Of a stretch of 64,000 bases of DNA, positions 3,001-62,205 are shown piece after piece (positions within the stretch are counted from its first letter, which is position 1; the number at the start of each line of letters is the position of its first letter). The translations under genes were made by a program, and so were the position numbers. Origin of the DNA: an uncultured Bacilli bacterium. GTDB taxonomy: Bacteria; Bacillota_I; Bacilli_A; RFN20; CAG-826. The stretch spans positions 37,018 to 101,017 of the forward strand of contig CAKPNG010000001.1 in assembly GCA_934168325.1 (NCBI GenBank). Direction: 5' to 3'. The notes under the pieces were generated by a model, which did not search any database, was not told the origin of the DNA, and saw only the letters and a program-made list of their open reading frames with translations.

Positions 3001-5224
3001 TTATTTAGGTAATTAGAATGTAATTATTAATAAAACAGGTATTTCTATTTACAAGTCTAATGATACTTTTAAATCTGACCCTGTTTTCTATATTGATGAT
3101 AGTGGTAATGTAGTATTTAAAGGTAAATTAGAAGGTGCAACTGGTACTTTTTCTGGAGATTTAAAAGTTCTTAGATTAATTGTTGAGAAGAATCAAAATG
3201 AAATGGTGTTAAGTAGCACTAACACTTATGCTGAAATTACCCAACCTACTACATTGGAAAAAGCATATGGCTACTATTATGAGCCGAAAGCAGAAACTAG
3301 CTATACGGGTATAGGCCCTTATGAAACTACAAAAGATTTATCTCTTTTCTTAAAGCCTGAAAGTGGAGAAGATAATCGTGTTCTTAAAGATTATTGGTTC
3401 TTTGATAAAAAACCACTTTATCAAAAGGGATTTTATAGTTCTACGTTTTTTGATAGTAGCCAAAAATTAGGCTTCTTTATTGACCCAGAAACGGGTGCTA
3501 TTATTGCCAATCAAATTAGTTTAGGTTCAGCGAATTTAACAGAAAAACTTACACTTGGCGCTATTACCGGCACACCCGCTTATATTTATAATCCTGACAG
3601 TTATGAAAATAAGGTAATTGAAAGCGGGGCTTTAATAATTTATAATGATGGCAGAGCAACGTTTGGAGACACTTTGACGTTAAAAAAGGATTATGCTTAG
3701 TTTGGTTTAATTACCGTCGATGGAAAAAATTCTACTATATCTGGCATAAATCCTTATATAAATGGTATTAATGCCTGGACAATTGGCGTTGATCGAGATT
3801 TAGGTGGATTTGGACGCTTTAATTAGCTGACGGCAAACGCATTAAATGTAGAAACTGCGGTATTTGATACTGCATCGGCTCGACTTTCGGGCGGTATTAA
3901 TGTCTTTAAAAACGGTGTTTTAATTGAATCGGTTTCTTTAATTGAAAACCGCCCAGGGCATTATTTAGTTAAGTGTAAAGATAGCACCGCTCTGACTAAT
4001 GTAGCTTTAGATGATGTTGTATTTTTAACAAAAGAAAATATTAGTATATCTGAGCGTTATTCTAATGGAATGTATGGTACAATTACTGATGTTTATTAGG
4101 ATGAAAAATCTGGTTATTTTGAAGTTTTTTCTACTAATGCATTATCTGCACTTGATTTTGACTTTGCTTTAGTCTTAGGCAAAAAAACAAATACAAACAA
4201 ATTAAAAGAATGGATTATTGGAGTCAATGCAACAGCTCGTGATATTGATGCTTTAGGATTGAGGAAAAATTCTATTAGTTTTACTTCGGTTAAAAAAGAA
4301 GACGGAACTCTTAAATTTACTGATGAAGTTATTATTGGACAAATTCCTTTAAAAGTAATAGATCCTACGACTTATGCCACAAGTGAAGAAACAACTTCCG
4401 GTTTATATGCGACATCGGTATTTTTGACAGGAACTTTAACTACCCGCTATAATTCTGCTACTAATTAGAAATATGCAGGCATTAATACCTTAAGCTCAAC
4501 ACCATTTATGATTGAGCGAATGAGAGACAATGATACTAGTCCTATTGTCTTTTGGGCAGGCGCTGAAAGTACAAATTTTGAAGATATTCAAAAAGCTCCG
4601 TTCCAAATTAGTTCTAATGGTTCTCTTTACGCAAGCCAAGGATATTTTACTGGGTCGATTATCACTGATACTACAATTGAAGCTTCGAAAATCATCGCCG
4701 CGACTATTTTTGGCCGGGAGGATGGAAAAGCTTTAACAATTCAGGATGCTGATATTGGTATAGATTTTAATGATAGTGAAGGCAAAACTATCTTTTAGGT
4801 TGCTCGTGACCACTTCTATATTAATGAGGAAGTTAATAAAATTAATATTCCATCTATACATTTAACTAATCCAGAGTTAGCTTTTAAAGAAAATAGCATT
4901 TATATAGATTCGAGTAATATTTATTTTGGCAATATTTTAGAAAAAGTAGCAGGCTCTCATACAGAAGATGAGTTAAAAAATACTTTTTATTTAGAATCAG
5001 ATAAATCTGATTATTTTAATTGGGCAATTAAATTTGATAATAAAGTGGATGAATTACAATTCACTTATCATAATTTAATTTTAGCAAAAATGGCGAAAGA
5101 AGGACTAACTACTACTGAAAATTTCTATGTTAATAAAAATGTTCATTATAGTGATAAAGCAATTTTAGCTTAGAGATTAAATAAAGATAAATCAGTTGTT
5201 GGTTATGACTTATTTATTGAGTAA
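2..5224 (+). CDS. Giant virion structural protein (tail/host-interaction-like), 5'-truncated at window edge; requires about 25 in-frame TAG codons to be read as sense
   Basis: Listed ORF fragments 194-823, 830-1018, 1040-1981, 2504-2977, 3203-3700, 4259-4468 and 4508-4798 all lie in frame 2 and are separated only by TAG. I read the gaps codon by codon and found no TAA or TGA. Frame 2 is open from nt 2; the first TAA is at 5222-5224. Confidence 0.7.
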
Positions 5225-5239
5225 AAGGAGTAATAGTTA

Positions 5240-7687
5240 ATGAAATTTGAAGTAAAACATATATACGATAGCACGGTGGCGGATAAAAACGCCATCGTGG
5301 CTAACGCTTTACAATTTAATATAGTTGCTGGCTCTGATATAGAAACAACGCCATCAACTGCTAATACCTATAAATTTTATTATGGAGAGTCTACAGAAAC
5401 CGCAGAACCTTTTTTAATTACTAATTAGTTATCTACTAACTATTATTTTAAAAAAGATTAGTGGGAGAGTGAGAATACCTTAACTTTAGAGAGCGGAAAT
5501 AGATATTTTGACTGTGATAAATTAACTATTAAAGTATTTTTGCCTGCGACACAAGAACCACTTATTCTATCAACTGAACAAGAAAAAACACAAGAAGAAA
5601 ATCTTTCTTTAAGGCCTGAATAGGCAAAACTTGTGGCTTGGGTGTCTCCTTTGGTTTTAGTTTAGAAAGAAGGAGACTTTGAACGGCCCGCGAGCGTAGC
5701 TGAACTTGCTCAAAATTATGCTTTAAAATTAACCGCAATTAATTTAAGTATTAGTTCAACTAATTAGGAGTTTTCCCAATGGTCGCCAAAATTAATTAAC
5801 TATCATTATTGGTTAAATTAGGCCACTGATCAATATATTGATATACCAATCGCACCTCTTGCTTTTCCTTTAGAAATTGGGCATATAAATGAACAAAATA
5901 TTTTAGATAATTTTTCTTTTAATTTTACGCTTACTTTAGGGAAAAAAGATTAGACAGATTAGATTACCTTGTTAAATTTAAAAGGTAGATATTTAATTGT
6001 AAATCAAGGGTACTTATTTTTATAGCCTGAAATAGCGGATAATAATACTTATAAAATCATATAGACGAGTGCTAATAATGGCGAAACTTTAATAGCTTCT
6101 CATATTCAAATATAGGAAGCTAAGTTTTCAGAATTAATGTCTGGTTTATCTGCGGGCCGTGAAGATTTATTTGATTATCATATTTATTTAACAGTTGAGG
6201 ATTCTGAGAAAGACTCGAAAGTTGCGGGAGTCCAAGATTTTCAATATTTGACAACATTAAATTTGATATTTAGGGAAAAACCTTTTTTTAAAGGTAGGTT
6301 TAAAAATACGGATTTAACATGGACCTTAGACAAAAATGATTTAACAAATTATTCCTGGCACGATTTAATGAGTCCTCAATAGATTGTTGGTGATTATTTT
6401 TATAATGCGGGGGTTTCATTTAAATTTAATTTTGATAATGCAATGCCATAGTTATGCGGACAAAATTTGTAGAAATATGTCCTTTATGAGAGTGATGACC
6501 GCGGTATTCATTATTATAGACTATTGGAGCTTGATCCTAGCAAAGATAATTCAAATGAAGCTATTTATACTGTTATAAGACGTTCTGCCGCGGCGAATAT
6601 TCGTTATGGAATTGGTATTATTACAATAGACAAAAAGGGCTATTTATTAGAAACACCATTTGATAATATTTTAAAAATTAATTTAACATTGCCAATTGGA
6701 CGCATTTCAACGCCAATTGCACTTATTGATAATTGTATTGCTGATCAAATGGTTTTAAAACCACAGTTAAAAATTGTGGATTATGGTGGTAATAACCAAA
6801 AGGATTCTAATATTAGCAAATTGCCAAGTTTAGCAGGCTATTTTGGTTAGCAAGTAAATTTATCTTGCACAATTGAATTTGAATATAGTCAAAATAAAAA
6901 ATTTTTAAATTCCAAAAAAGTTACACAAATTATTACTTTAACAGAAGGCCAATCTTATTAGTCAATTAACTGGTCTAATTTATTTGATTAGAGCGGTTTG
7001 CCACTAGCTGATGAATCTGATTTATCTGCAACGCTTTATTTACGGGCAACACTGAGCTTTGTCTATGGTTGTCAAGATAACATTGATTTACTTATTTGTG
7101 AAACCCCAATTTATACTCATTTTGGGTTAAAGCAATTGCCAACAGTGTCCTATTTAAAAAATTAGATTGGTATTAATACTCCGAACTTAGCTAATAATGA
7201 AGTAATTGGAATTACTTCAACAACAGATAAAGCATTAATTCGTTTGTTAAATGGAAGTGAGCATTACTCTTCTCTAAATATTAATACTCGCAATTTACAA
7301 GAGTTTATAATTAATTGTGGAAGTTGGGATGATGCTGAATTTGGTTATACTAATTTTTAGGTCATTTCAAATTTATTGCAAGATGGTTCACCGCAAATTA
7401 TGAAATATGAAGCAGTTGAAGTTCCTGATATAAATGACACAACAGCAGTAGAAGCTTTTGAAGCCTTATGGAATTCATAGACTGACCTTTATGTTCGAGT
7501 TCAAGAATATGATGTTAATGGTAATTTAATTAACCGTGTAAATTATTCTAAAATTTATTTGAAAAAAGGCCATGACTGGAAAGAAGTATGTAAAGGTTTT
7601 ACTACAATTTATAAAATTACAAATAACCTATCTTATGGATGGTTTTATGATAAATCCCATTCAAAATTTACAGTTGTATAGGAGTAA
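5240..7687 (+). CDS. Large virion structural protein, TAG-recoded (about 815 codons)
   Basis: RBS aaggag precedes ATG 5240. Fragments 5240-5428, 6137-6382 and 6524-6850 plus unlisted short fragments are all frame 2, joined only by TAGs. Ends at TAA 7685-7687. Confidence 0.65.
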
Positions 7688-7702
7688 AAGGAGGAATAAA
7701 AT

Positions 7703-8569
7703 ATGGCAGATTATCAAAGTAGCTATACTGGTTCCGTTATTGACGAAGCTATTAGCAGAGCCTTAACTTTAACAAAATTAGATGGAACAGTATTAGAAAA
7801 TTAGAATGAAACTTATGTTGTTGTGGCGTCTAAAAAGGATGGTAATTTTTCTTATCATCCGCTTAAGTTTAGTCAAATGCCAGTTTAGGTTGTCCCGAAA
7901 GAAGAAGGATCGACAATAACATTTCAATTATTTACTATAAACGGGCGAGGCCCAGAGGAAAACAATCCTGGAGCTTATGTTCTTGATGCGGGCCGTATTC
8001 CTTATGCCGAGACCTTGACTGATGACCTTACGTTAAGAACAAATTCTGTATATTGGCATTTAAAAGATGTTATAGGCCGTAGTAAAACTACAGAAACTAA
8101 TTTAAGTAATCATATTGATAATAAACTCTTATTAAATGAATTGAATAAATTAGCGGAAAATGAGACAAAATTTTATCATATTGAGGGTAAAGTGTGTTAT
8201 AAATGGAATGATAGTATTGATAATGCTGATGAACATATAGCAGATAAAACTATACATTTAGCTCAAACAGATAGAGACTTATTAGCTGCTTGCCAAATCC
8301 ATTTAAATGACATAACTAAGACGGATAGTCCATTCCAATACCATTTAAGCGGAACTGACCGCACTTTTTTAACGAATCTTCAATCTACTGGAACAAATAG
8401 TATTATTGCAATACAAAATCAACTTGAAACTAAAATTGATACTGCTTTTGAAATTGGTTCAGTTCCCACTAACCAAAAGAAATTATGGATTGATACTGTT
8501 AATAATGTTTTAAAATATTATAACCCAACGAAAAAGGATTGGGTAATCGTTCCTGTAGCCTATTCGTAA
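7703..8569 (+). CDS. Virion-associated protein, TAG-recoded (288 codons)
   Basis: RBS aaggagga then ATG 7703. In-frame TAGs (e.g. GAA AAT TAG AAT). Joins listed ORF 8015-8569. Ends in TAA. Confidence 0.6.
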
Positions 8570-10842: not shown

Positions 10843-11138
10843 GAGTAATTAAAGTTTTATCCAAGCAGATTGAGGAAGAACTAGAAGACTCAAACAAATA
10901 TATTGACAGCGCTTTAACTTATAAAACTTAGTTTCCGAAATTGGCTGAAACCTATATTGAATTAGCTAATGAAGAAATTGGCCATGCCGAACGACTTCAT
11001 AAACAAGTAGTTAGCTTAATTAGTGAAATTCAAATAGAAACACCTAAATTTATGCAAGAACTTTGGGAAGAAAAACATATTGAACTAATTACAAAAACAG
11101 CAGAGTTAAAAACAAAAATAGAATTATATAAAAAATAA
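10839..11138 (+). CDS. Hypothetical protein (99 codons) with 1 in-frame TAG
   Basis: ATG overlaps the upstream TGA (ATGA). The listed ORF 10941-11138 extends upstream through one TAG to this ATG. Confidence 0.5.
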
Positions 11139-11143
11139 AAAAG

Positions 11144-11180
11144 GCTGGGAGTATTTTTTACTCCCAGCTTTCTATTTTAT
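11144..11180. terminator. Bidirectional intrinsic terminator
   Basis: Stem GCTGGGAGT/ACTCCCAGC flanked by T-rich runs on both strands. Confidence 0.65.
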
Positions 11181-11892
11181 ATACCTTATTAAAAGTGTGC
11201 GAAGCATAATAACCAATACCTACGGCATCAGCTTCATCTTCTGATAAAGACACGTCATATTTATCTTTTGCTAATATTTGCATAGCTCTTTTGCGATCTG
11301 TCCGCGTTTTACCTTTAATTCCACAATAATTCCGCCAAGTCGCTGTATGACAAATTTCATAAGGAATTTTTAATTGGTAAACAGTATTAATTAAAACCCC
11401 TTGAAGCCAAGCCAGTTTTTGAAAAACTATCACACCCATTTGACGATTTTCACTTTTATCCTAAAGCTATATTCCTTCAAAAGCAATTAAGTCAGGTGAG
11501 TAATTAATAATCATTGAGTTCAGCCAAACTCTAATTTGGTTAATGCGGTCATCGTCATCACCACCGCCGGCTTCAAATATACCATATTTAACTAATTGTT
11601 CATTATCAAAAATAGCCCAGCCCGTTAAATGGCTTGCCTAATCTAATGCTAGTGTTCTTTTAACTCCTCTCGGCTTTGAAACAATTTCTTTTGTCATTTG
11701 CTTTAACTAATTCTATTGACAAATTGGACAAAAACGTTTATCTCGCTATTTTTTCCAAGTAGAGTAAACTTTATGTCCTTCATCGCACTCAAACACTAAT
11801 TCACTATCTAAATTCTTATATTCTTGAGAAATTAATTTCCATTTGTCCTATGTCAAAGTTTCTTTAATTTGCTCAATTGTTATTTTACTCAT
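11158..11892 (-). CDS. ruvC: RuvC-like Holliday-junction resolvase with N-terminal zinc ribbon; 7 in-frame TAG
   Basis: The C-terminal part is listed ORF 11158-11439 (..DEADAVGIGYYA). Extending upstream through TAGs gives MTKEIVSKPRGVKRTLALD*ASHLTGWAIF...IAFEGI*L*DKSEN, a RuvC N-terminus. Further upstream lies a zinc ribbon (FECDEGH...CPIC). The ATG at 11892-11890 overlaps the dUTPase TGA. Confidence 0.65.
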
Positions 11893-12851
11893 TTTCCTGT
11901 TGAACCGTAGCCACCGCTACCACGATCTGTCTCCTCATTAATTTTATCAATTTGATAGAAACACGCTTTGGGGACTTCACTTAAAACCAATTGAGCTATT
12001 TTTTGTCCTTTTTCAATATGAAGCGGAGAACCAGTTAAAATTGAGGTAATACGTGGGAAACCTTGCTCATCAAAGTCATAGGTTATGTCTTTAATTTTTG
12101 GTTCAATGTTGTCAATTATTACACCAATCTCCCCACGATAATTGGCATCGATAGTCGCGGGCGAATTAGCTACTCTCATTTTGCTCTTAAGCGATAGCCC
12201 ACTTTTAGGTCTGATTTGAAGTTCATAGCCCAGTGGAAGTTCAACTTTTAACCCAGTCTTAAGAAGTTTTGTCTCGCCAGGAAGAATATCAATGTCTTCT
12301 GTCGCATAAATATCCATGCCCGCATCAGATGGATGAGCATAAGTCGGCATTTGCCCATCACTACTAATTTCAATTGGAATTTCGATTATTTTCTTGTTAA
12401 TTCCTTCTGTTTCGGACAAAGCATTATAATTAAGTGCGATAATTCTCTTTAAAAAGTCTCTCTTGCGGGCGGTCATTATTCCGCTCATTTGTTCCTCAAT
12501 TTGTTTGTTTAAATCTTCAAACATCGTTCGATATTCTTCAAGGCTAATGCCAGTTGCATTTAAAGCTTGAACTAATGTTAAACGGTCATTAACATTATTA
12601 TAGGCTCGTTCAAATTCGTCTAAAAATAATGGAGCAATTAAATCGAATTGTTCATCTGGTAAAGCCAACATGGAGGCTATTTCTTCAAAACCACCCAACT
12701 CAGGATTAATTTGTTCTATATTAGCAAAAAGTTGTTTAAATAAACTTTCTTGACCTTGTTTCGCCACCTCGGCGGAATCCATTATTTTATTTATTTTTTC
12801 TTCAACAATTTGTTGAGTTTTTTCTTTATCTTCTACAATATGTGCGTTCAT
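11889..12851 (-). CDS. dut: dUTP diphosphatase fused to an N-terminal domain of unknown function
   Basis: dUTPase motifs GDAGMDIY, RPKSGL, IDANYRGEIGVII and RGSGGYGSTGK. Confidence 0.85.
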   Translation of the reverse strand: MNAHIVEDKEKTQQIVEEKINKIMDSAEVAKQGQESLFKQLFANIEQINPELGGFEEIASMLALPDEQFDLIAPLFLDEFERAYNNVNDRLTLVQALNATGISLEEYRTMFEDLNKQIEEQMSGIMTARKRDFLKRIIALNYNALSETEGINKKIIEIPIEISSDGQMPTYAHPSDAGMDIYATEDIDILPGETKLLKTGLKVELPLGYELQIRPKSGLSLKSKMRVANSPATIDANYRGEIGVIIDNIEPKIKDITYDFDEQGFPRITSILTGSPLHIEKGQKIAQLVLSEVPKACFYQIDKINEETDRGSGGYGSTGK

Positions 12852-12855
12852 TTAA

Positions 12856-13086
12856 TCACTCCACATCATCCCAAAGTTTTTCATATTCAGCACTAAGTTT
12901 TACAAGTTCATGTGTTGCTATAATTTCTCCTTTAGCTTTTTTCTCTTTATGAGTGTAGCCCGCAGAAATAACTTGATAACCTTCTTGTTTTGCTTGAGTC
13001 CTAAAGTGCTCCATAAGTTCTTTTGCTTCTTCTTCAGTGCTTACAGCATATTCAGTAGTTTGTTTAAGTAATCTTTTCATATACAA
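12856..13086 (-). CDS. Hypothetical small protein (76 aa)
   Basis: Intact ORF. Confidence 0.4.
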   Translation of the reverse strand: MYMKRLLKQTTEYAVSTEEEAKELMEHFRTQAKQEGYQVISAGYTHKEKKAKGEIIATHELVKLSAEYEKLWDDVE

Positions 13087-13140
13087 AATTTCTCCTATTT
13101 ATTTTCTATAATTTTATTATAGCATAAATAGGAGAAAAAG

Positions 13141-14415
13141 TCAAATTTTTTTGCGTAAAATTTGGTTTAAAATAAAGCCCAATACAATAGCGAGACTAAC
13201 TCCACTAAAAGCACTATCAAAAAGCCAAATCCCACTAACACCTACTGTCAATATGACAGAAACAATAATTAAATTTTTATTATCTTCTAAATCAACTTTA
13301 TTATTTAATAAAGTCTTAAGACCACTAGATGCAATATATCCATAAAGAATCATTGCACAACCGCCAAACACACAAGAAGGAATTGAATTAAAGAAGACTT
13401 GAATTGGTTCAAAAAAAGCAAGCCCGCCTAAAATTAAAGCAGATATTGTTGTTATTACTGTTGAAGCAACACGGCTAAAACCAATTGTTGCTATTGCCTC
13501 GCCATAGCTGGTATTAGGCAGTCCGCCCACAATTGAGCCAACTGTTGAAGCGATACCATCACCTAAAAGTGTTTTGTAAAGTCCTGGTTTTTTTGTTAAA
13601 TCAGTTCCAATTATATTCGATAATACTTTATGATCTGAACAATGCTCCATCGCCGAAGCTAAACTAACAGGGACAAATAGTAAAATAACTTTACCAATTG
13701 TTGCCCAGTTAAGTTCTGAAAAATTCCAATTCATAAAAGTTAATTGAGGAAATTTAAATAAACTAATTCCTCTAAAGGCTTCAAGATCAATAAGTGAAAT
13801 AACACCACTTATAGTCAAAATTAAACTTACAATATAACCTGCAAAAATACCAATTAAAAAAGGAATTGTTTTCCAAAAGCCTTTAAAATAATGTGAGCTA
13901 AGAGCTACTACAAACATAACAAAAATTGCAATAACTACACCAATTTCAGACTGTTCTCCATTAACTTGGACGTAAGTCGGGATAAAACCCGCAAGATTTA
14001 CACCAATTACAATTGTAATAGCTCCAATTATTGTAGGCGGGAATAATTTATTAAAGCTATCCTGTCCTTTTATTTTAATTAAAAGAGCCAATAATCCATA
14101 AACAATTGCAATAACTACACCACCAATTGCAACTGCCAAGTAATTGGGAGCTGCGCCGATTGCAAGAGCACCTATAACTGCGGAAACTGTAGCTCCGCAA
14201 GAAGAAATCAACATTGGAGATTGACCTTTGGTAATTAACTGGTAAGTTAAAGTGCCAAGACAAGCACCAAGCAAACACGCATCAATAGGTGTTCCGCAAA
14301 TATTAGCAATTAAAATTGTTGCAACAATACAACTCGACACCATTTGGAGTGGGTAAAGCGCCCACTCTTTTAGCGTTTTTGGCTTTTCATTTATATCATA
14401 AAGGAGATTTTTCAT
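13141..14415 (-). CDS. NCS2-family nucleobase permease (uracil/xanthine permease-like)
   Basis: About 12 TM segments. Motifs LFPPTIIGAITIVIGVNLAG and GLPNTSYGEAIATIGFSRV match the UraA family. Confidence 0.8.
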   Translation of the reverse strand: MKNLLYDINEKPKTLKEWALYPLQMVSSCIVATILIANICGTPIDACLLGACLGTLTYQLITKGQSPMLISSCGATVSAVIGALAIGAAPNYLAVAIGGVVIAIVYGLLALLIKIKGQDSFNKLFPPTIIGAITIVIGVNLAGFIPTYVQVNGEQSEIGVVIAIFVMFVVALSSHYFKGFWKTIPFLIGIFAGYIVSLILTISGVISLIDLEAFRGISLFKFPQLTFMNWNFSELNWATIGKVILLFVPVSLASAMEHCSDHKVLSNIIGTDLTKKPGLYKTLLGDGIASTVGSIVGGLPNTSYGEAIATIGFSRVASTVITTISALILGGLAFFEPIQVFFNSIPSCVFGGCAMILYGYIASSGLKTLLNNKVDLEDNKNLIIVSVILTVGVSGIWLFDSAFSGVSLAIVLGFILNQILRKKI

Positions 14416-14516
14416 TAATCAAATTCAACCTCCTTTTCTTTTATAAAGGCAATTACTTCTTCAATTGAAGAAACAAGGACACCACTTTGTTTAATAATGC
14501 CCGTCACAAAAATGTT

Positions 14517-14930
14517 CTAATAACTATACTGTTGTTCACCGAGAGAACTTGCTCCGCCCGCATCTTTAGCGTCGCTATGAGTTAAATAACACTGACGGTT
14601 ATCAGTACAAATTCCAACTATATATTTATGATCACCGCGGCGAATTTTTTCTCTCATTATACCAATTTCTGAGCAAGTTCCACTTGGAAGGACATCGCCA
14701 TCAATGCACGCTACAAGAATGTCAGTATTATCAAGTCTTGCACAATCAGCGTTTGCAATCATTTGAGAATCTGCAAACTTCTTTTTCCCTTCAACACCAT
14801 TAATCTCGGTGTTTTGAAGGGGGTCATAAATATCGGCTGTTGGGAAAGCTTCAGTTAGTTTTTCAAAAAAATAGTCATTGCGAAATTTATCACCTAAACA
14901 AAAAATTCCGCCAGCTAAATAAATTTTCAA
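14517..14930 (-). CDS. Nucleoside 2-deoxyribosyltransferase-like protein
   Basis: TTG start after RBS aaggagg. Motifs YLAGG..F and SGTCSEIG (catalytic Glu). Ends in TAG, followed by a 33-codon open extension. Confidence 0.5.
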   Translation of the reverse strand: MKIYLAGGIFCLGDKFRNDYFFEKLTEAFPTADIYDPLQNTEINGVEGKKKFADSQMIANADCARLDNTDILVACIDGDVLPSGTCSEIGIMREKIRRGDHKYIVGICTDNRQCYLTHSDAKDAGGASSLGEQQYSY

Positions 14931-14942
14931 TTATTTTCCTCC

Positions 14943-17195
14943 TTATGAGCATTTCGAATAACCGCAATTTTTGCACGAGTTGCAACCGCCTTCAAAAATT
15001 AATGGCTCACCGCACTCTGGACAAAGAGCTTTACTCGGAATTACTTTTATTGGTTTTTCAACTTTTTTATTTTCTTTTTTATCTTCTTCTCCAAAAAGTT
15101 CAATTTGAACTTCCTGATACATTTCCAATAATTTTTTACCTATTGCCATAGGACAGCAAGAACCAGGCGAAGTATCGTGTTTTGTCGCACGGCGGACCGC
15201 ATAAGAAGGACAAGCGCCAGTAGAATCAAGCTGATCTACTATATCAAAAATATTGACACCTGCACGGCAAAGTAAAGAAATTGTTCTACTTAATCCTACC
15301 ATAAATAACGAGCAACCACCAGTTGAGCCTTTAGATAAATAGACTTCCATTAAGGCTCCATCAATTGGGTTAAAAAATGCTAAAACATGGAGACTTCCGC
15401 AACCACTAATAATTTTGTCTTTCCGTCCAATTAAATCAGAAGAACATTCAATTATATCGCCACGTTTTAAGGCGGGCTTTTCTTCAGCTATTGGGGTTTT
15501 TTCTTTTTTTGGGGTAGCCACTAAAATACCTTCTCTTGCACAACCAGCACGATATACAGTTATACCTTTAAGCCCATTTTTCCAAGCATACATATAAAGA
15601 TTTTCTACATCTTCGATTGTAGCTTCATTAGGTAAATTTACAGTGGAGGAAATAGATGCATCAATATGTTTTTGCCAAACTGCTTGCATATTAATTCTGC
15701 TATATACAGGTATATCAGAAGAAGTTACAAAGTACTGAGGTAAATTATTATCGTCTTCTATATTATGTGCTTCCATATATTGTTTTACGATAGGTGTATA
15801 TACTTTATATTTAATATCTTTGCCATGTAACGATTTCGTTGTTCTTTCATAGTAATTAGCAAATATAGGTTCAATACCACCTGATACTCCTATCATCGTT
15901 GAGATAGTACCAGTAGGAGCAATAGTAAATAGTTGGCTATTTCTTAAATGAATAAATGGGAACATAGTAAGATTATATTTGCTAAATGATTCTACTTGTT
16001 TGTACCAATATTCTGTAGTAGTTACTTTTATTACATTGAAATCCTTATATTGTCCTAAAATATCACCTAAATCAGAACTTGCTTTAATTCCATAGTAATT
16101 TAAATATGTACCTATTTTATCACATAATTCTAATGCTTCTTCACTACCATAACGAATATGGAGCTTAATTAACATATCAGCAAGACCCATTATACCTATG
16201 CCGATTTGTCTATAATTAGCTACACTCTCTTGTTGCTCTTTGAGAGGATGTCGTGTTAAGCCCTCTGTTAGAATGTCGTTCTGATAATTTACTGCTTCCT
16301 GCACAACGTAAGAAAATTCGTCAAAATCAAATTCCCCATTTTTTACAAATGCTGCAAGATTTATTGCACAAAGATTACAACTGCCTCCTGCTGGAAGGGG
16401 CTCCTCTGCGCATGGATTAACACCTGCATATTTAAAAGATTTGGTATTAGAAAGCAAATTATAGTTATTTATCCTATCCCAAAATAACATTCCAGGTTCT
16501 GCATAGTTCCAATTTTGTTCGCACAGTTTTCTAAATAATTCTTTTGCTTTAATTGTTTTAGAAATAATTTCACCTGTTTCTTTGCGTTCAAACTTAAGCT
16601 CCCAGTCTTTATCTTCTTCTACTGCTTTCATAAAAGCATCAGAAATTCTTACTGAAATGTTTGCATAATTTACTTTATTCAAATCAGATTTAACTGTAAT
16701 AAATTTTTCAAGGTCAGGATGAGTATCAGATATAGAAATCATTAATGCTCCTCTACGACCATTTTGTCCTATTTGTTCTGTTACCTGAGAAAAAGTGTCC
16801 ATAAATGATACTGCGCCAGAAGTAGCTTTTGCTTGATTATGTACTTTAGCCCCTTCTGGTGCAAGATTACTTATATCTATTCCACAACCTCCGCCATATG
16901 AGTAGGTACGAGCTAATTTGGAACAGGTTTCATATATACTTTCAATACTATCCTCGGGAGGAGTAATTACATAACAATTAGATAAAGAACATTTTTCATC
17001 ATCAATACCTCTGTTAGATAATATCCTTCCCGCAGGAATAAATTTTTTTTGAATAATTAGGTTTCTAATATATTCATTATTAATGGACACCCTATCAAGC
17101 CATTCATCAAAAGTCTCCCCATTTCGCTGATATTTTTTATGCCATATATCAATACCTAATTGATTATCTTCGCCGAGCCAATCTTCAATTCTCAT
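14943..17195 (-). CDS. nrdJ: Class II (B12-dependent) ribonucleotide reductase
   Basis: Active-site GVNPCAEEPL...CNLCAINL. Cys-rich C-terminal tail with a zinc ribbon. Confidence 0.8.
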   Translation of the reverse strand: MRIEDWLGEDNQLGIDIWHKKYQRNGETFDEWLDRVSINNEYIRNLIIQKKFIPAGRILSNRGIDDEKCSLSNCYVITPPEDSIESIYETCSKLARTYSYGGGCGIDISNLAPEGAKVHNQAKATSGAVSFMDTFSQVTEQIGQNGRRGALMISISDTHPDLEKFITVKSDLNKVNYANISVRISDAFMKAVEEDKDWELKFERKETGEIISKTIKAKELFRKLCEQNWNYAEPGMLFWDRINNYNLLSNTKSFKYAGVNPCAEEPLPAGGSCNLCAINLAAFVKNGEFDFDEFSYVVQEAVNYQNDILTEGLTRHPLKEQQESVANYRQIGIGIMGLADMLIKLHIRYGSEEALELCDKIGTYLNYYGIKASSDLGDILGQYKDFNVIKVTTTEYWYKQVESFSKYNLTMFPFIHLRNSQLFTIAPTGTISTMIGVSGGIEPIFANYYERTTKSLHGKDIKYKVYTPIVKQYMEAHNIEDDNNLPQYFVTSSDIPVYSRINMQAVWQKHIDASISSTVNLPNEATIEDVENLYMYAWKNGLKGITVYRAGCAREGILVATPKKEKTPIAEEKPALKRGDIIECSSDLIGRKDKIISGCGSLHVLAFFNPIDGALMEVYLSKGSTGGCSLFMVGLSRTISLLCRAGVNIFDIVDQLDSTGACPSYAVRRATKHDTSPGSCCPMAIGKKLLEMYQEVQIELFGEEDKKENKKVEKPIKVIPSKALCPECGEPLIFEGGCNSCKNCGYSKCS

Positions 17196-17391
17196 TAATT
17201 TCCTCCTCTTTTAACCCACACCACTTGCATATTCCATTTTCAAATTCATGCGGGCATTGCTCTCGTAGTTCGGCATTTTCATTAAGCAGTTTTGCGACAA
17301 CTTGATTAAGTGTAAAAAATTCTGGTGTAAAACTTTCTTCAATTAACAAATTATTCATATCAATTTTTTCTTTAATTTCAAGACCAGTCAT
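17185..17391 (-). CDS. Small zinc-ribbon protein
   Basis: CPHEF...CKWCG. Confidence 0.35.
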   Translation of the reverse strand: MTGLEIKEKIDMNNLLIEESFTPEFFTLNQVVAKLLNENAELREQCPHEFENGICKWCGLKEEEINEN

Positions 17392-18442
17392 GCATTAATT
17401 CCTCCTTTGCTTCTCCATAATGATATTTTTGTAAATGTTCAAAAAAGTTTGGATAATTATAACGCACCACTTTCATAATTTCGCGGGCTGATGTTTTTTC
17501 TTCATTTTTTAATCTTTTGCAAAAATCAAGAAAAGGTGGCGAATAACCCCAATGTGCTTTTTCTTGGTATTTATATGCCCATATTAAATAACGGTTTAAA
17601 AGCCGTGCTATTTGTTTATTCCGATTAGATAAATTATCAGTAATTAAATTAATGGGTAAATGCCAGTTAATTGTATATAAAAGTTGATTATATAAAGAAA
17701 CCCATAGCTCATCGGTATAGCGTTGAGTAAATGGGTTATAATTGATTATTTTAGGATTAACTTTTCGTTGTTCGCTAAAACATATCAATTCTTGTGCAGT
17801 TAAAGGGAAATTTATATTAAATGTTGTGGCAGAAACTTTATAACGTAAATTTTGCCACGACAGTAATGTTTCAAAATTACTAAATTGAAGGGGGAATTTA
17901 AATCCAATATGGGTTTTTAGAGGGTCAATCCCACACTTATATTCTAATAAGTCTGCTATTGTTTCACGGGCGCCCGCAATAGAAGTTATGTCATAATCAT
18001 AGCAAAAAATTGAGTAATCTTTAGATAAAACAGGTAGATCGTTAGTAAATAAGGGATTAATAGTTTTCCCATCAAGTGATAATCGAAAATGTTCACCCGA
18101 CATCATTGATTTAAAAAGAGCTTTATCTCGAAAATAACTTTCTTTATCAAGATAAATTGTTTTATCTGGGCAATATTTCTCTTCATCAATAGACTGATAT
18201 TCTTCTGAAAAATAATGACCGCCATACTGAATTTTAGAATAACTAAAAAAGTCAATTGGTAAGTTATTTAAATCACTGTCTTTTCTTAAAATAAATTTTG
18301 TATAGCTATCAGGAATAAAGAGAGGAGAGAGTTTCACAATCTCTCTTCTCCCCTTATAAAATTTAGCCATTTTCATTAATTCTAAATTAAAAAAATCATA
18401 GTCGTGATTCATTAAATCATTATCATATAAGCCAATACTCAT
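17378..18442 (-). CDS. Hypothetical protein (354 aa)
   Basis: Intact ORF co-directional with the replication genes. Confidence 0.5.
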   Translation of the reverse strand: MSIGLYDNDLMNHDYDFFNLELMKMAKFYKGRREIVKLSPLFIPDSYTKFILRKDSDLNNLPIDFFSYSKIQYGGHYFSEEYQSIDEEKYCPDKTIYLDKESYFRDKALFKSMMSGEHFRLSLDGKTINPLFTNDLPVLSKDYSIFCYDYDITSIAGARETIADLLEYKCGIDPLKTHIGFKFPLQFSNFETLLSWQNLRYKVSATTFNINFPLTAQELICFSEQRKVNPKIINYNPFTQRYTDELWVSLYNQLLYTINWHLPINLITDNLSNRNKQIARLLNRYLIWAYKYQEKAHWGYSPPFLDFCKRLKNEEKTSAREIMKVVRYNYPNFFEHLQKYHYGEAKEELMHDWS

Positions 18443-21400
18443 TATGCAATTCCCTCATCTCTACGATTATTAATAACTAATGTTCCATCTTCCTTGACTT
18501 CTTGAATCAAATCAACTAAGTGATAAGGAGTTGATTTATATTTTTTACCTTGAAAACTTTTATCTCGTCTAATACCAGTAATAATAAGTTTATTACCACG
18601 ACTAAAATCACTTTTTCGAATTATATGTTTATGGCCATCGGCGCCTTTTTCAGAAATTTGTTTATCATAATAACTGAAAACTTCACCAAATATTTTTACA
18701 ATTACGACCCCTTCAGTAGTCAAAAGTGTAATTGTTTTCTTTTGTTTATCTCTATCTAATACAGTTCCTGCGATTCGATAAATTTTAAATATAGGAATTT
18801 CTTTACCTTTTATTGGGAGAATGCGATCAATAGTTGGGCTTTCATTTAAATCATAGAAATTACTAATATTATAATTACTAAAATTAACATTCTCCAATTC
18901 GTGTTGATGTTGATAGCATGAAATACTATCCATTTCCCACTTACTTAAAGAACCCAGGCAATATTTATTCCACATATCACTCATTAATCGCTCATTAACT
19001 TGTTCAAGTAATTCTGTGCTATTTTGTTTAACCCACGGTCTAATTTGATCCATATATTTTTGATAAATTTTATCCCATTTTAATGAATCAATTGCAAAAC
19101 CGCTTTCGCTATCAGCGGGCGTAAGTAAATCCATATCAAAATGTTTTTCATAAAAAGTAAAAGCTATATTATCAAGTTGAAATTGCTGAACTTTTTTCTG
19201 TCGTTTTAAATATTTGTTAAAATTATAAACTCTTTTAACTAAATCAAATTCTTCCGGAATTAACCCAAAATTAATTAACATTGCCATATTTTGAAGTGTG
19301 ATGCGTTGCTTCATATCACTAATTGATGCAACATACTCCCTCATCAATTTAACACGGTTAGGTTCAATTTCATCAAACGCCCCACATTTAATTAAATTAA
19401 TCATTTGTGGTTTTTTAACTTTAACTTTTGTTATAAAATCTTGCCATCCTGCGTAAGGACGTTGAATTAGAATTTCTTTTACAACATCTTCACCGACGCC
19501 GCTAATTCCACTCATTCCATAAAGAATGGTTTTTTCGTCTTGATCAACAGAAAAAGTAAAGGTAGATTTATTTATGTCAGGCGGAGCAACTTCAATGCCT
19601 GCCATTCTCATTTTACCAATTGCAGTAGCGATACGTCCATAATCGGTAGTTTTTTGTTTTTTCTTCTTTTTATCAGTTGTTTTTTCGAGTTCTTCGTTAT
19701 CGTCATCATCATTTTCATCTTCATCTTCATCATCGTCATCTTCATTTTCACAATTATTTTCAGAAATGTTATCCGTTAATTCATCAAAACAATCAATAAC
19801 TTCAAATTCATTTTCATCAATGTCATTTTCTTGCTCTCGTTCTATAATTGATTGACTATTTACTATTAAACAAGCACAGTTCCAATAAATTGATGGCCAT
19901 TGTGTTGCTAGAACAAGCGTTTGAATGCCAATAAAACTATATAATAGAGAATGAACTTCTGAAAAACTATAACTCATCTGTGGTTCCATCATTGTTTTCC
20001 AAGCGTATTCGCCAAGAGTTTTAGTTGGGCATTGAGCTAAAAATTTTTCTTTAACTTTAGGAATTTCTTTTATCTTTTTTTTCGCTAAAACTTTTCGACA
20101 TTGATTACTTTCAGCCAATGTAAAATGAGAAATTTTGGGGTCCATTACCATTAGCATCAACATTTCTTGAGAACAAGGAACGCCATAATCTCGTTTATAA
20201 TAAGGCTCTAATATTTTTTGTTCTTCAGGTGTTAATCCTGCTTGAGTCATTTCTTTATACCATAAATTAATATTGTTTTTAAAAGCAATATAACGATCTA
20301 ATGGTCGTTCTTGGCCAGGCGGAGCAACAAGTCTAAGTAAGGCATTAGCAGAAGTTAATTCAGCAGGTGTATGTGGTCGAATTGCTTTTGCAGTTTCAAT
20401 ACCAATTTGAGTATTAAATTGAAAAACATCTTGAACTTCGCCATTGGCAAGTGCTTCCCAAATTCGCGGATTTTTTAAATTTAAAACTTGCGGATGAAGA
20501 TATTTATTATAAATTTCTCGCTTTGTTTTACAATCATTGAAATATCCTCTTTCCTGAAGAAGGTCGAGACAAACTGAAATTTTATCACAAATATCCGTCA
20601 CCAAAAAGTCAAATTTTGTATCTCCTACTTCTTCTGACTTTTTTAAGTCAAATTGCGTTGTAATGTCTCCATTTGGACTCCGCATTAATGCAGTGGTTTC
20701 AAAAGGAGAATTATTATACATCATAACACCACTCGCGTGTTGCCCACGACGACAAACCAATCCTTCAACACCCAAAGCAATTTCTAATAAACCAGGATAT
20801 TGATTAAATTGACGAACTAATTCTTTTACAGGTTTTCTTTCTTTTTCTTCATTGCCATAAAAACAGTCATTTAAACTCCATACAATACCGCGTTCTACAG
20901 GGACAAGGCTTGACATATATTGTGCAATATCTACATCAATGCCTTTTGGGCAATCTTTTGAACGATAACCTTTACAAGCACATTGAATAGATGCTTTTGA
21001 ACTTTCAGTCCCAAAAGTTGCTACTTGCACAACATTTAATTGCCCGCGTTCTTCTCTAATTTTATCAAGAATTAATTTACGTTTTGAAGGAGTTAAATCT
21101 ATATCAATATCCGGGAGTTCTGCCCTGTCTTTATTTAAAAATCTAAAATACGGCAAATTCCATTTAACTGGATCAAGCTGAGTAATTCCCAATAAATAAT
21201 TTGATAAAAAGCTTCCTGCACTGCCACGACCTGGTCCCGTGACCGATCCGCATTCCCAAAACAAATCCATATAATGTTGAAATGTATTAAAATAAGAAAA
21301 TAGGCAGTTATTTAATTTTTCACTAATGGTTCGAATTACATCAGCTTCTAACTCCAAACGTTCCATATGGATTTTATCATTTAATTTTTTTTCATTTAAG

Positions 21401-25216: not shown

Positions 25217-26276
25217 TTACTTTTACTCTACCTTTCAATAATTTCCTAAAAATTTCGGGACCATGGTCAGTTGGACTATCTTTTAAATTTGTTAATCCTT
25301 CTCTATCATAAACAAATGAAAAATTACAGTATTCAGAATATTTTCTGCACAGTTTATAAAGTTTATTGAAATATTTATCTTCGCCTGGTTTTTCCTCATT
25401 ATCAAAACAAATAACAATTTCTTTTGGCTTTCCATATTTTAAAAGCTGACGAAGTTGCCATTTATTGAACTGCGAACCGCAAACTGCTACTGCACAATTA
25501 ACAAAGTTTTTTGAACCCCAACTTTCTATCTGTAGAATTGCCTTTTCACTCTCGCATAAATAACAAATTCCTGTTCTTTTAATATTCTGATAATTAGCCT
25601 TCAACCCATATAAATTACAAGAAAGAGGATGGCTATACCACTTACCCTCAACCTTAATTGGTCCATATTTGCCATATTGTTCAACTTCATCAGGATTGAG
25701 TGCCCGCCCTCTAATTCCAATTAGTCGATTTTTCATATCATAATGTGGGATTATAATTTTATTTTGACTAATTGAATAACAAATTCCAAATTTATCCATT
25801 GCCGCAGGAGTAATTCCATCATTAAGCCATTCTGGTCTATAACTTTTTACGAAAGTATCAAGAACAGAGGAGTCATATTCAGGCAAAAGTGGAATTTTTC
25901 TATGTTCCTTATTTTCTCTAATTGACCGATAAACTTCAAGTTGCGATTCATTTTTATAGTTGGAGCAATTTAAAACTACTAAATAAATATCCAAATACCA
26001 GTCATAATCGCGGCCACGGGCTTCATAATAATTTTTTAAAAACTTAAAAATTGACATATTTCCACATTCAGTAAAACAAACAAATAATTTATTATTTTTA
26101 TAATAATAAAGTTTCTCTGACGCATTTTCTAAATTTTCATTATGGCAAGCAGTTTTACAAACCAAAAAATCTCCCTTATCAATAAAAGGTATTTTAAGAC
26201 GAGTTAATAGCTTTTTAATTTTATCATCATCAATTTCTCTAATAATTTCTTCGTAATCAATTGCCATTAAGTGCAT
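25206..26276 (-). CDS. DnaG-like primase
   Basis: CHC2 zinc finger (CKTACHNE...VCFTECG) and a Toprim-like acidic motif. Confidence 0.55.
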   Translation of the reverse strand: MHLMAIDYEEIIREIDDDKIKKLLTRLKIPFIDKGDFLVCKTACHNENLENASEKLYYYKNNKLFVCFTECGNMSIFKFLKNYYEARGRDYDWYLDIYLVVLNCSNYKNESQLEVYRSIRENKEHRKIPLLPEYDSSVLDTFVKSYRPEWLNDGITPAAMDKFGICYSISQNKIIIPHYDMKNRLIGIRGRALNPDEVEQYGKYGPIKVEGKWYSHPLSCNLYGLKANYQNIKRTGICYLCESEKAILQIESWGSKNFVNCAVAVCGSQFNKWQLRQLLKYGKPKEIVICFDNEEKPGEDKYFNKLYKLCRKYSEYCNFSFVYDREGLTNLKDSPTDHGPEIFRKLLKGRVKVNAS

Positions 26277-61625: not shown

Positions 61626-61702
61626 GAGGCGGTAGTCCAACGGCAGCAGACAATGGACTTAAAATCCATCAAGTGAGGGTTCGAATCCCTCTCGCCTTAC
61701 CA
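61626..61702 (+). tRNA. tRNA with anticodon UAA (Leu-like) and a short variable arm
   Basis: Acceptor GAGGCGG/TCGCCTT with A73 and CCA. T arm GAGGG-TTCGAAT-CCCTC. Anticodon stem ATGGA/TCCAT with loop CTTAAAA. Confidence 0.55.
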
Positions 61703-62059: not shown

Positions 62060-62205
62060 ATCAGTTCTTTTAGAAAAGGAGTGAAGCCTATGATTGTATT
62101 TGAAAGAATAAAGGAAAAGGACAGTCCGCCTAAAAGATGAGACTTGTTGAGAGTCGGTAAACTATCAACTCAGTTTTGTAGTTCTGAATAAAAACTACAA
62201 AGTAT

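Follow-up and report, generated by a model that had tools for sequence, protein, structure and literature searches.

A predicted deoxyribosyltransferase–permease cassette in the nucleotide-supply block of a TAG-recoded gut phage

In E. coli the phosphoribosyltransferase gene upp lies upstream of the NCS2 permease gene uraA on the same strand, and the base is imported and then fixed at once onto a sugar. The xpt-pbuX operon of B. subtilis likewise joins a trapping enzyme to an NCS2 permease. Among cultured phages, an NCS2 permease was found in Clostridium botulinum phage c-st only. This phage is tailed, its host belongs to the Bacillota, and its genes CST091 (uracil permease), CST093 (nucleoside 2-deoxyribosyltransferase, NDT, 221 aa) and CST095 (thymidine kinase) lie within 4 kb, the first two within 2 kb. 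EfPDT (PDB 7M5H) is a tetrameric type I purine 2'-deoxyribosyltransferase from Enterococcus faecalis; it is purine-specific (PMC12372993, Table 2) and its catalytic residues are Tyr5, Asp60, Glu86 and Asn130 (PMC12372993). In Borrelia an NDT is used in purine salvage, according to the available part of PMC2764106. DmtZ, from PurZ0 Z-genome phages, is a member of the NDT superfamily that has lost the Asp binding the sugar 5'-OH. It alters the dNTP pools and is found in association with a gene of dUTPase type; the available part of its description (PMC12884076) makes no mention of a permease partner. The phAss-1/SPbeta-like siphophages of ~130 kb encode PolIII alpha, and TAG is recoded in phAss-1; the words "permease" and "deoxyribosyltransferase" do not occur in the phAss-1 paper (PMC10607447).

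The window analysed here (the whole stretch of 64,000 nucleotides) holds about half of a phage genome of ~128.5 kb. This phage resembles the phAss-1/SPbeta-like group in genome size, in a giant tape-measure-like late gene rich in TAGs, in a suppressor tRNA with anticodon CTA (tRNA(CUA), 63673–63746, plus strand, detected by ARAGORN) and in PolIII alpha, which is 38–39% identical to SPbeta YorL and to its counterparts in Enterococcus VRE9 phages. The lineage is SPbeta/phAss-like by PolIII alpha and the host is therefore probably a Bacillota; no nucleotide-level match to the phage was present in the phage collection searched. TAG is read as Gln. Late ORFs fuse once it is taken as a sense codon (194–5224 with 14 TAGs, 5240–7687 with 21), and the tRNA is needed for the TAGs of the late genes and of the NDT-like gene described below. 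The recoding and the NDT–permease coupling are additions to what the sequence-only reading of this DNA had described.

The region 11889–17195 is the nucleotide-supply block of this phage, and the minus-strand genes ascribed to it by that reading are all in place. The block consists of five genes: NrdJ, a class II (B12-dependent) ribonucleotide reductase with a TSCPD domain (14943–17195; TIGR02504 498 bits, cut-off 400; PF02867 2.6e-109; PF12637), the NDT-like gene, the permease, a conserved 76-aa protein (12856–13086) and a dUTPase fusion (11889–12851; PF00692 1.3e-20; NF001862 132.7 bits, cut-off 103; PHROG 135). A large gut phage with a TAG=Gln code encodes its own membrane nucleobase transporter. 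The dUTPase domain occupies only residues ~160–320 of the fusion, whose N-terminal ~160 aa gave no family match in profile searches. The 76-aa protein, between permease and dUTPase, also returned no match in family searches; its homologues (39–50% identity) stand at the same position in L003, L007, L009, L010, L017, L022 and L029. For the dNMP kinase placed further along (54591–55106, minus strand) PHROG 139 at 2.7e-8 agrees with the proposal, but there was no Pfam or PDB match and the kinase is only a possible one; its similarity to the PF21448 DNMK protein of L005 amounts to 28% identity over 61 aa. Deoxynucleoside kinase, thymidylate synthase and PRTase were absent among the scanned ORFs of the window, i.e. 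of about half of the genome. Chance is no issue for the block because of its long ORFs, strong profile matches and >2000 homologues.

The permease (13141–14415, minus strand, 424 aa) is an NCS2/NAT nucleobase permease of the UraA clade and represents a phage-specific subfamily. Profile search puts it in the proposed Xan_ur_permease family (PF00860, 8.9e-54, residues 17–396). The match to E. coli UraA structures (residues 7–420; 4.5e-42 with the single sequence, 3.9e-60 with a profile) spans the whole 14-TM fold instead of the 12 TM segments suggested earlier; the shortness of TM3 and TM10 explains why a crude hydropathy scan shows about 12–13 peaks. The protein is 30% identical to UraA and has no similarity to AdeP. 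Its best profile match is uracil permease (PRK10720), though below the NCBIfam cut-offs (224 bits against 477 for uracil permease, 200.6 against 291.8 for NCS2). UraA-like motifs had also been noted, and they are retained in part: the equivalents of E241 and E290 are kept, and are near-invariant in the family, but H245 is replaced by Asp, N291 by Ala and F73 by Gly. The N291 equivalent is Ser or Gly in relatives, and the permease is thus off the NAT signature motif; TM8 carries ExxSD (ExxxD against ExxxH in UraA) and TM10 carries YGE[ASG]. In view of the missed cut-offs and variant motifs, a pyrimidine, uracil and/or thymine, as the most likely substrate is a guess.

The permease is under purifying selection (dN/dS 0.05–0.14) and its family is essentially restricted to phages: in 185,579 species genomes scanned it was found in three MAG contigs only, with the NDT-like gene upstream in each. 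The view that such a permease is unusual in a phage is correct for cultured phages, whereas within this metagenomic clade the gene is common. CST091 of c-st is only 25% identical to the window permease but has the ExxSD and SE-A motif features in common with it. In two relatives the permease is interrupted by a homing-endonuclease insert with in-frame TAGs.

The NDT-like enzyme (14415–14930, minus strand, 171 aa, TTG start at 14930) belongs to the family proposed for it (PF05014, 2.2e-12), but its ORF does not end at 14517: the TAG at 14519–14517 is read through to the TAA at 14417–14415. This single in-frame TAG stands for Gln immediately before the invariant catalytic Asn, as follows from homologue comparison. 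The codon at this site is TAG in L002, CAA in ten relatives including the 96%-identical L006, and a His codon (CAT or CAC) in three; the residue is Gln in 119 of 120 database homologues. The best PDB match is EfPDT (E=3.8e-22 with the single sequence, 3.5e-30 with a profile, 32–33% identity), and when a homologue with 94% identity was modelled by AF2 (pLDDT 82), the model agreed with 7M5H at a TM score of 0.74–0.79. Both enzymes carry the same insertion, which is located between beta4 and alpha4. Tyr4, Asp62, Glu88 and Asn139 correspond to EfPDT Tyr5, Asp60, Glu86 and Asn130 and are invariant or nearly so; the Tyr132 equivalent is Tyr or Phe. In contrast, Asp80, through which true NDTs bind the 5'-OH of the sugar, is replaced by Pro82. 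Pro, then Ser, Ala or Ile, takes its place in all permease-linked forms, and a new invariant Asp (DGD motif) appears three residues upstream. Owing to this replacement the deoxyribose donor may differ from a plain deoxynucleoside. The EfPDT-like NDT of the cultured phage Thrax1, which has no permease, keeps the canonical Asp. NDTs of permease-less cultured phages thus differ from the permease-linked ones, which form a distinct lineage. The canonical Asp is also present in CST093, which is similar to the NDT-like protein of 221 aa in L003 (E=4e-7). The dN/dS of the NDT-like gene is 0.03–0.13.

The stop codon of the NDT-like gene overlaps the permease start (TAATG), and the Shine-Dalgarno sequence of the permease (AAGGAGG, 14429–14435, minus strand) lies within the NDT-like 3' end, 13 nt ahead of the ATG. 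By these signals the two genes form a translationally coupled two-gene cassette. As in upp-uraA, the enzyme gene precedes the permease. The same arrangement, directly adjacent and on the same strand, was found at 42/42 related loci, which were drawn from IMG/VR, ENA, Logan and MAG bins and restricted to those including upstream DNA; the pairing is the same whichever gene seeds the search. It holds at a permease identity of 46% (L043) and 36% (L040), with the NDT there at 74–76%. The surroundings vary: NrdJ or NrdD may be present, and L043 is devoid of any nucleotide genes. A phage with an 86%-identical permease has the order PolIII, 347 aa, 68 aa, NrdJ, NDT, permease, which answers affirmatively whether relatives carry the gene. 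Unlike EfPDT, the phage enzyme is always linked to a permease. In c-st the permease comes first and a hypothetical gene separates it from the NDT; no counterpart of the c-st thymidine kinase was found in the window or in L001–L037. In L003, L004, L009, L012, L019 and L026–L028 a second permease directly follows the first. The L003 copy shares 36% identity with AdeP, the adenine symporter of E. coli (E=5e-85), while the first permease matches UraA only (29–36% identity); the added AdeP-like purine permease would speak for salvage of several bases.

A phage-restricted permease, under purifying selection and physically coupled to the NDT-like gene, supports the salvage role proposed earlier. We somewhat favor a reading of the cassette as the phage counterpart of upp-uraA, with deoxyribose as the sugar on which the imported base would be trapped. 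During infection the permease, a predicted nucleobase:H+ symporter, would enter the host membrane and bring in a free nucleobase, most likely a pyrimidine. The NDT-like enzyme would then trap it by transferring 2'-deoxyribose from deoxynucleosides, possibly dNMPs, of degraded host DNA, and kinases would phosphorylate the product; direction of transport, substrate, donor and downstream kinase are all inferred. NrdJ (NDP to dNDP) and dUTPase (dUTP to dUMP) would be ordinary co-located pool enzymes. The variant TM8/TM10 motifs of the permease set it apart from the bacterial pair, and so does its partner: here an NDT-family enzyme is predicted to yield a deoxynucleoside or deoxynucleotide. If so, imported bases would reach the deoxy pool without ribonucleotide reduction, and the pairing suggests that phages turn free bases directly into DNA building blocks. 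A purine-specific EfPDT as the closest characterised NDT would fit awkwardly with a pyrimidine permease.

It is possible, although unlikely, that the permease only boosts uracil uptake for the host ribonucleotide route (host Upp to UMP, UDP, phage NrdJ to dUDP, dUTP, phage dUTPase to dUMP, host ThyA to dTMP) and that the NDT-like enzyme acts independently as a generic pool balancer whose adjacency has no bearing on mechanism. Such a boost would serve an AT-rich genome (window GC 29–41%) and is consistent with the similarity of the permease to UraA and uracil permease, as well as with the NrdJ and dUTPase flanking the cassette in the window and several relatives. However, the pair persists with no NrdJ, NrdD or dUTPase nearby, e.g. 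in L043–L045, L014, L015 and L023. The constant adjacency together with the stop–start overlap argues for a functional pair, and the distinct lineage of permease-linked NDTs, set against the Thrax1 form, also opposes the idea.

Somewhat more doubtful is a DmtZ-like phosphodeoxyribosyltransferase/dNMP N-glycosidase, which would load the base, maybe a non-canonical one for modified phage DNA, onto deoxyribose 5-phosphate from host dNMPs. The loss of the 5'-OH-holding Asp in all permease-linked forms points this way, since DmtZ, itself without the 5'-OH-binding Asp/Asn, acts as a dAMP hydrolase and passes dR5P on to the Z base (PMC12884076). Around the cassette, several relatives have a gene resembling a dNMP kinase, and the search of the window detected no nucleoside kinase there. 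On the other hand, the partner Asn is invariant here, unlike in DmtZ or Rcl, and the DGD-motif Asp might replace the lost one. Structure search ranks EfPDT, CtNDT and DpNDT well over DNPH1/Rcl, whereas the nearest structures of DmtZ are Rcl/DNPH1 and MilB (PMC12884076, available part). Neither PurZ nor base-modification genes were seen in the window.

Transport by NCS2 carriers is in principle possible in either direction. Export or detoxification, with the NDT-like enzyme hydrolysing nucleotides and the permease removing the freed base, or else superinfection exclusion or another membrane effect, is nevertheless very improbable. Those carriers of the UraA clade that have been characterised import by H+ symport, and the annotation of both UraA and AdeP is H+ symporter. 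The family conserves the residues for proton coupling and for the substrate, relatives add a second, AdeP-like importer, and the block is placed among dNTP-synthesis genes. In its favor, hydrolases are known within the NDT superfamily (available part of PMC12884076).

That the region is host DNA misjoined to the phage, or a recent non-functional capture, has a negligible probability; no evidence in its favor was found, and it is refuted by GC/GC3 values equal to those of the neighbours (permease 0.339/0.195, NrdJ 0.337/0.197, PolIII 0.317/0.191) in a window GC profile without a break, by the identical permease protein on 128–130 kb contigs from several samples, by synteny kept in divergent phages, by dN/dS of at most 0.14, by the phage-code TAG in the coupled upstream gene and by the TAG-bearing insert in the permease of two relatives. 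A separate observation concerns the many weak tblastn matches in the "phages" collection: these come from UNVERIFIED records that bear no annotation, reach a GC of 0.715 and have no NDT close by, and they are probably bacterial contaminants.

The NCS2 permease gene (13141–14415, minus strand, 424 aa) is directly preceded on the same strand by a gene for an enzyme resembling nucleoside 2'-deoxyribosyltransferases (NDT; 14415–14930). The sequence-only reading had taken the region 11889–17195 for a nucleotide-salvage module with a phage-encoded NCS2 permease, and profile searches confirmed all the families it had named there (dUTPase, NCS2 permease, NDT and NrdJ) in minus-strand ORFs. Besides the permease, standard-code ORFs are present for a dUTPase fusion (11889–12851, 320 aa), a 76-aa protein to which no identity was assigned (12856–13086) and NrdJ (14943–17195, 750 aa); the standard-code part of the NDT-like gene (14517–14930, 137 aa) is cut by a TAG codon. 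The dUTPase domain (PF00692, 1.3e-20; NF001862, 132.7 bits against a cut-off of 103; TIGR00576, 127.3 bits against 102.55) is of the trimeric type and is confined to the C-terminal half of the fusion (residues ~161–320). NrdJ exceeds the equivalog cut-off of TIGR02504 (498.1 bits against 399.95), also contains a TSCPD domain and thus belongs to class II RNR. The dNMP kinase proposed at 54591–55106 is still putative: it matches PHROG 139 (2.7e-8), whereas Pfam and PDB searches returned nothing. Among 40 window ORFs scanned with Pfam and PHROG there was no ThyA, ThyX, dNK or PRTase, and a search with the Tdk of Clostridium phage c-st found no thymidine kinase in the window or the related loci L001–L037. 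A strong bidirectional terminator-like hairpin of 13 pairs is located at 11141–11171, where plus-strand late genes meet the minus-strand nucleotide and replication genes. The best sigma-70-like site of the region (13116–13144, minus strand; 11/12, extended TG) falls at the very end of the permease gene, ahead of the genes for the 76-aa protein and the dUTPase; promoter-like sites overall showed no enrichment over shuffles.

The phage uses genetic code 15, in which TAG encodes Gln. The in-frame TAG of the NDT-like ORF (14519–14517) is shared with one relative (L002) and is replaced by CAA in ten others, including L006 with a 96% identical protein, so that it is read as Gln; extension to the TAA at 14417–14415 gives a protein of 171 aa. 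A frameshift or pseudogene is excluded here, as the frame is unchanged, the TAG is single and relatives have CAA in its place. A tRNA with anticodon CTA (63673–63746, ARAGORN) is one of seven encoded at 61626–63951. Reading TAG as sense also fuses broken late ORFs (194–5224 with 14 TAGs and 5240–7687 with 21), and seven TAGs fall within a RuvC-like gene (11158–11892). Gene calls on a 128,549-bp ENA metagenome contig, of which the window makes up positions 29177–93176, are consistent with these fusions. Most replication genes are free of TAG, the exceptions being the RuvC-like and NDT-like genes; late genes are TAG-dense, among them a giant TAG-rich, tape-measure-like ORF of 2646 aa on the ENA contig. 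PolIII-alpha shares 38–39% identity with YorL of SPbeta-like Bacillus phages and with its counterpart in Enterococcus VRE9 phages. A Bacillota host is likely. In size, giant TAG-rich late gene and suppressor tRNA the phage is similar to the phAss-1 group, the description of which makes no mention of a permease (PMC10607447).

The relatives were gathered by exact look-ups of permease homologues, scans of IMG/VR and of 185,579 species genomes, and look-ups of NDT homologues. The sequence-only reading had asked whether relatives carry the permease; they do, and an NDT-family gene is located directly upstream of it on the same strand in 42 of the 42 loci with DNA upstream of the permease. Mostly the two genes abut or overlap. 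In three loci (L040–L042) an extra ORF separates them, which encodes a GIY-YIG homing endonuclease in L040 and L041. The NDT stop of the window overlaps the permease start by one base (TAATG), and an AAGGAGG within the NDT gene is positioned 13 nt upstream of the permease start. The surroundings of the cassette vary: NrdJ gives way to NrdD/NrdG in many loci, and nucleotide genes are absent nearby in L043–L045. The pairing is kept where permease identity falls to 46% (L043) and 36% (L040), with the NDT still 74–76% identical. The scan of species genomes found the permease family in only three MAG contigs, all with an NDT-like gene upstream, and the subfamily is therefore essentially phage-restricted. 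Among the candidates scored, 2288 matched the permease at E≤1e-10, the best 120 of these all being at least 62% identical; the NDT homologue search gave 1813 matches. The NDT-family partners fall into three divergent forms: that of the window (171 aa), that of L005 (174 aa, ~37% identical to the window type) and that of L003 (221 aa, matching PF05014 weakly, at 22 bits). In eight loci (L003, L004, L009, L012, L019 and L026–L028) a second permease, absent from the window phage, directly follows the first. That of L003 (11275–12678) resembles E. coli AdeP along its entire length (36% identity, E=5e-85), and its TM8 and TM10 motifs are of AzgA type.

The permease falls in Xan_ur_permease (PF00860, 183.1 bits against a cut-off of 27, 8.9e-54), where a profile search had been expected to place it, with residues 17–396 on positions 2–384 of the 389-position profile. 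Its residues 7–420 align with residues 7–406 of the E. coli uracil permease UraA (about E=7e-42 to 4.5e-42; 3.9e-60 with the family profile). This end-to-end match to the solved 14-TM UraA identifies it, at the level of sequence, as an NCS2/NAT member; identity to UraA is 30%, and similarity to AdeP is not significant. The acidic residues of TM8 and TM10, Glu241 and Glu290 in UraA, correspond to Glu257 and Glu306 and are nearly invariant among 29 family members. The claim of UraA-like motifs thus holds in part: the equivalents of Glu241, Gly289 and Glu290 are kept, His245 is changed to Asp261 and Phe73, which in UraA binds via its backbone, to Gly74, and the TM10 Asn is replaced. The NAT signature of TM10 is [Q/E/P]-N-x-G-x-x-x-x-T-[R/K/G]; the window permease has E-A-I-A-T-I-G-F-S-R and the family consensus is E-S-I-A-T-T-G-F-S-R, with Ala, Ser or Gly across the family in place of Asn (Y-G-E-[A/S/G] instead of Y-G-E-N). 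TM8 reads E-x-x-S-D, like SVCT1 and other NATs, where UraA has E-x-x-x-H. These variant motifs and the change of Phe73 to Gly are common to all cassette permeases, including that of c-st. The scores remain below the equivalog cut-offs for uracil permeases (PRK10720, 224 bits against 477) and for NCS2 (TIGR00801, 200.6 against 291.8). Judged by these features, the permease is not an orthodox uracil permease. A substrate call from the motifs was abandoned, as those of TM8 and TM10 blend traits of different NAT subgroups. Our best guess for the substrate of the first permease is a pyrimidine, because this UraA-clade carrier is accompanied in several relatives by an AdeP-like one; two such carriers beside a base-exchanging enzyme are what a base-salvage device should look like.

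The NDT-like protein matches Nuc_deoxyrib_tr (PF05014, 47.6 bits against a cut-off of 28.8, 2.2e-12), again the family in which a search had been expected to place it. Its closest solved relative is EfPDT of Enterococcus faecalis (7M5H; E=3.8e-22 with a single sequence, 3.5e-30 with a profile), a tetrameric purine deoxyribosyltransferase for which six catalytic residues are given (PMC12372993). For a homologue with 94% identity, an AlphaFold (AF2) model (pLDDT 82, pTM 0.80) matches 7M5H with TM 0.74–0.79. The structure search with this model placed CtNDT and DpNDT far above DNPH1/Rcl, which ranked 33rd or lower with E above 1e-3, compared with 2e-10 for EfPDT. Purine specificity by analogy with EfPDT is unjustified at 33% identity. 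Equivalents of the EfPDT nucleophile Glu86 and of Tyr5, Asp60 and Asn130 are kept in the family, and Tyr132 is Tyr or Phe. Across 63 homologues Glu88, Asp62 and Asn139 do not vary, and conservation of Tyr4 is at least 90%. In NDTs the Asn (Asn130 of EfPDT) comes from the partner subunit.

The sugar site is altered. The sugar-binding Asp located six residues before the Glu (Asp80 of EfPDT, Asp92 of LlNDT) is replaced by Pro82 (PSGTxxE), likewise by Pro in the L005-type form and by Ala in the L003-type form. A new invariant Asp (Asp79) is found three residues before the Pro (D-G-D-V-L-P-S-G-T-x-x-E). The canonical Asp is retained in CST093 of c-st and in Thrax1, a Bacillus phage with an EfPDT-like NDT and no permease. 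The replacement matters because DmtZ, a phage NDT-family enzyme without the 5'-OH-binding Asp/Asn, hydrolyses dAMP and moves deoxyribose 5-phosphate to a base, as a recent study showed (PMC12884076). The cassette enzyme does not fit the pattern of Rcl/DNPH1 and DmtZ, in which small uncharged residues take the place of both Asp and Asn: the Asp is lost, yet Asn139 is invariant, and the nearest structures are not Rcl/DNPH1. As only the Asp is lost, deoxynucleoside transfer stays the default activity, with transfer at the level of dNMP as a live alternative.

The order of enzyme and permease is the same as in E. coli, where upp is directly upstream of uraA on one strand; in the phage the phosphoribosyltransferase is replaced by an enzyme of the deoxyribosyltransferase family. 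Like upp-uraA, xpt-pbuX of B. subtilis is a classic "permease plus trapping enzyme" design. Phage c-st, sequenced long ago, is annotated with a uracil permease (CST091), an NDT (CST093, 221 aa) and a thymidine kinase (CST095) within 4 kb, so that, as an annotation, an NCS2 gene next to an NDT in a phage has a precedent. The c-st permease is 25% identical to that of the window, and its NDT resembles the L003-type form. No functional or comparative account of these c-st genes was found in the literature searched, and no description of a phage NCS2–NDT cassette within the searchable literature. Both gene families are already known and a distant pair is annotated in c-st; the coupled, phage-restricted cassette with its altered transporter signature and NDT sugar site appears to be undescribed. 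That NDT chemistry is able to carry a salvage pathway follows from Borrelia, in which an NDT is the hub of purine salvage (PMC2764106).

The earlier proposal of nucleobase import and salvage by the phage is supported by these data and can be sharpened. The mechanism we favour, with modest confidence, is that a free base would enter through the permease by proton symport and be fixed by the NDT-like enzyme, translated together with the permease, onto deoxyribose from the breakdown products of host DNA, with kinases finishing the route; NrdJ and dUTPase would be ordinary co-located pool enzymes. Alternatively, imported uracil may feed a route through host Upp, RNR, dUTPase and ThyA, the adjacency of the NDT being incidental. 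The UraA clade of the permease and the neighbouring NrdJ and dUTPase agree with such a route, the stop–start overlap and the constancy of the pairing speak for coupled import and deoxyribosylation, and we regard the uracil route as unlikely. Transfer at the level of dNMP or of non-canonical bases, to which the Pro82 change points and for which the invariant Asn139 is less expected, is doubtful enough to be put behind it. Export or another membrane role is very improbable, as the two acidic residues of TM8 and TM10 are kept and several relatives add an AdeP-like importer.

An artefactual permease region can be practically dismissed: composition, recurrence, synteny and dN/dS rule out a chimera or host DNA. 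A discontinuity of coverage or GC had been named as one observation that would overturn the phage assignment. The GC profile of the window has no step, and GC/GC3 of the permease (0.339/0.195) matches its neighbours (0.337/0.197 for NrdJ, 0.317/0.191 for PolIII). Several contigs encode the identical permease protein; its 90% cluster comprises 459 members, the longest of their contigs being ~128–130 kb. A phage with an 86%-identical permease has the same order of PolIII, 347-aa protein, 68-aa protein, NrdJ, NDT and permease. Among phage lineages dN/dS is 0.05–0.14 for the permease and 0.03–0.13 for the NDT-like gene. Megablast of 11000–19000 against 50,697 phage records gave no match. The tblastn matches of the permease among phage records were mostly unannotated and host-like. 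Three UNVERIFIED "Bacteriophage sp." records (GC 0.44–0.72), which contain an NCS2 gene 26–30% identical and no NDT nearby, were discounted as probably bacterial.

Phages carry soluble nucleotide-pool enzymes. To our knowledge, few tailed phages encode nutrient importers that are integral membrane proteins. The gene for the present nucleobase carrier, with 14 predicted TM segments, is stably kept in phages, evolves under purifying selection and is represented by over 2000 metagenomic sequences of large phages from gut and rumen; the cassette is small and portable. If the favoured mechanism holds, DNA precursors would be made from extracellular free bases and host-derived deoxyribose, a supply route we do not know to have been described for viruses, and phage productivity would be tied to the availability of nucleobases in the gut. 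The new NCS2 subfamily, with its altered signature motif, would bear on the rules of transporter specificity, and the new NDT subfamily, with its altered sugar-binding site, on nucleoside biocatalysis. A bolder idea, which we consider rather improbable, is that the permease-linked NDT-like proteins are natural base-to-deoxynucleotide transferases and that the cassette works as a vectorial machine for import and deoxyribosylation. Bases taken up from the gut lumen would then be joined directly to deoxyribose, or to its 5-phosphate, derived from host DNA. Ribonucleotide reduction, and possibly nucleoside kinases too, would be bypassed in this way, and the imported base could be a non-canonical one that ends in phage DNA.

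Some further enzymes are encoded near the cassette in relatives. A 5'-deoxynucleotidase of NT5C type, dNMP kinases of DNMK type and a guanylate-kinase-like protein are found at L005:14959–15594, L005:11581–12150 and L040:2487–3146; the nucleotidase would be a source of deoxynucleoside donors for the NDT. In relatives of the NrdD type the genes between dUTPase and RuvC (L003:13872–15220, L009:4896–6241) encode a radical-SAM protein of 250 aa and a GT2 glycosyltransferase, which could represent a second activase or DNA/base modification.

Several genes are interrupted. In two divergent relatives, L006 (10913–11787) and L036 (~6907–7866), the permease is split at the same point (window ~13502, codon Tyr304/Gly305, inside the substrate-site motif NTSY|GE) by an insert of ~0.9 kb with an HNH/NUMOD4-like homing endonuclease that has in-frame TAGs of its own. 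Rfam at the gathering threshold gave no match in L006, L036 and L002. With an E-value threshold a single weak group I intron match (RF00028, 22.7 bits, E=0.0026) was obtained 3' of the endonuclease, so the insert can be called an intron only tentatively. Truncated members of 311–316 aa in the 90% cluster of the window permease suggest that the split allele is common. RNR genes (NrdJ or NrdD) are in two or three pieces in L002 (5838–9471), L005 (446–4120), L022 (4295–8440) and L040 (3161–7112), with ORFs for endonucleases (GIY-YIG, HNH or others) in between; the window NrdJ is intact. Mobile elements seem to have entered the replicative helicase gene of the window: on inspection by eye, a DnaB-like ORF of 743 aa (27714–29945, minus strand) contains an intein or LAGLIDADG-like insert and is followed by a GIY-YIG-like ORF with six TAGs (26863–27621) and a separate 156-aa helicase C-terminal piece (26257–26727), both on the minus strand. 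Within the late-gene block, a 325-aa protein composed mostly of Cys/Gly/Ser repeats (CGGSCGSSCSNAC...; 49328–50305, plus strand) is encoded immediately ahead of a radical-SAM enzyme of 445 aa (50327–51664, plus strand; weak PF04055 and Fer4_12 matches), and the two may be a maturase–substrate pair.
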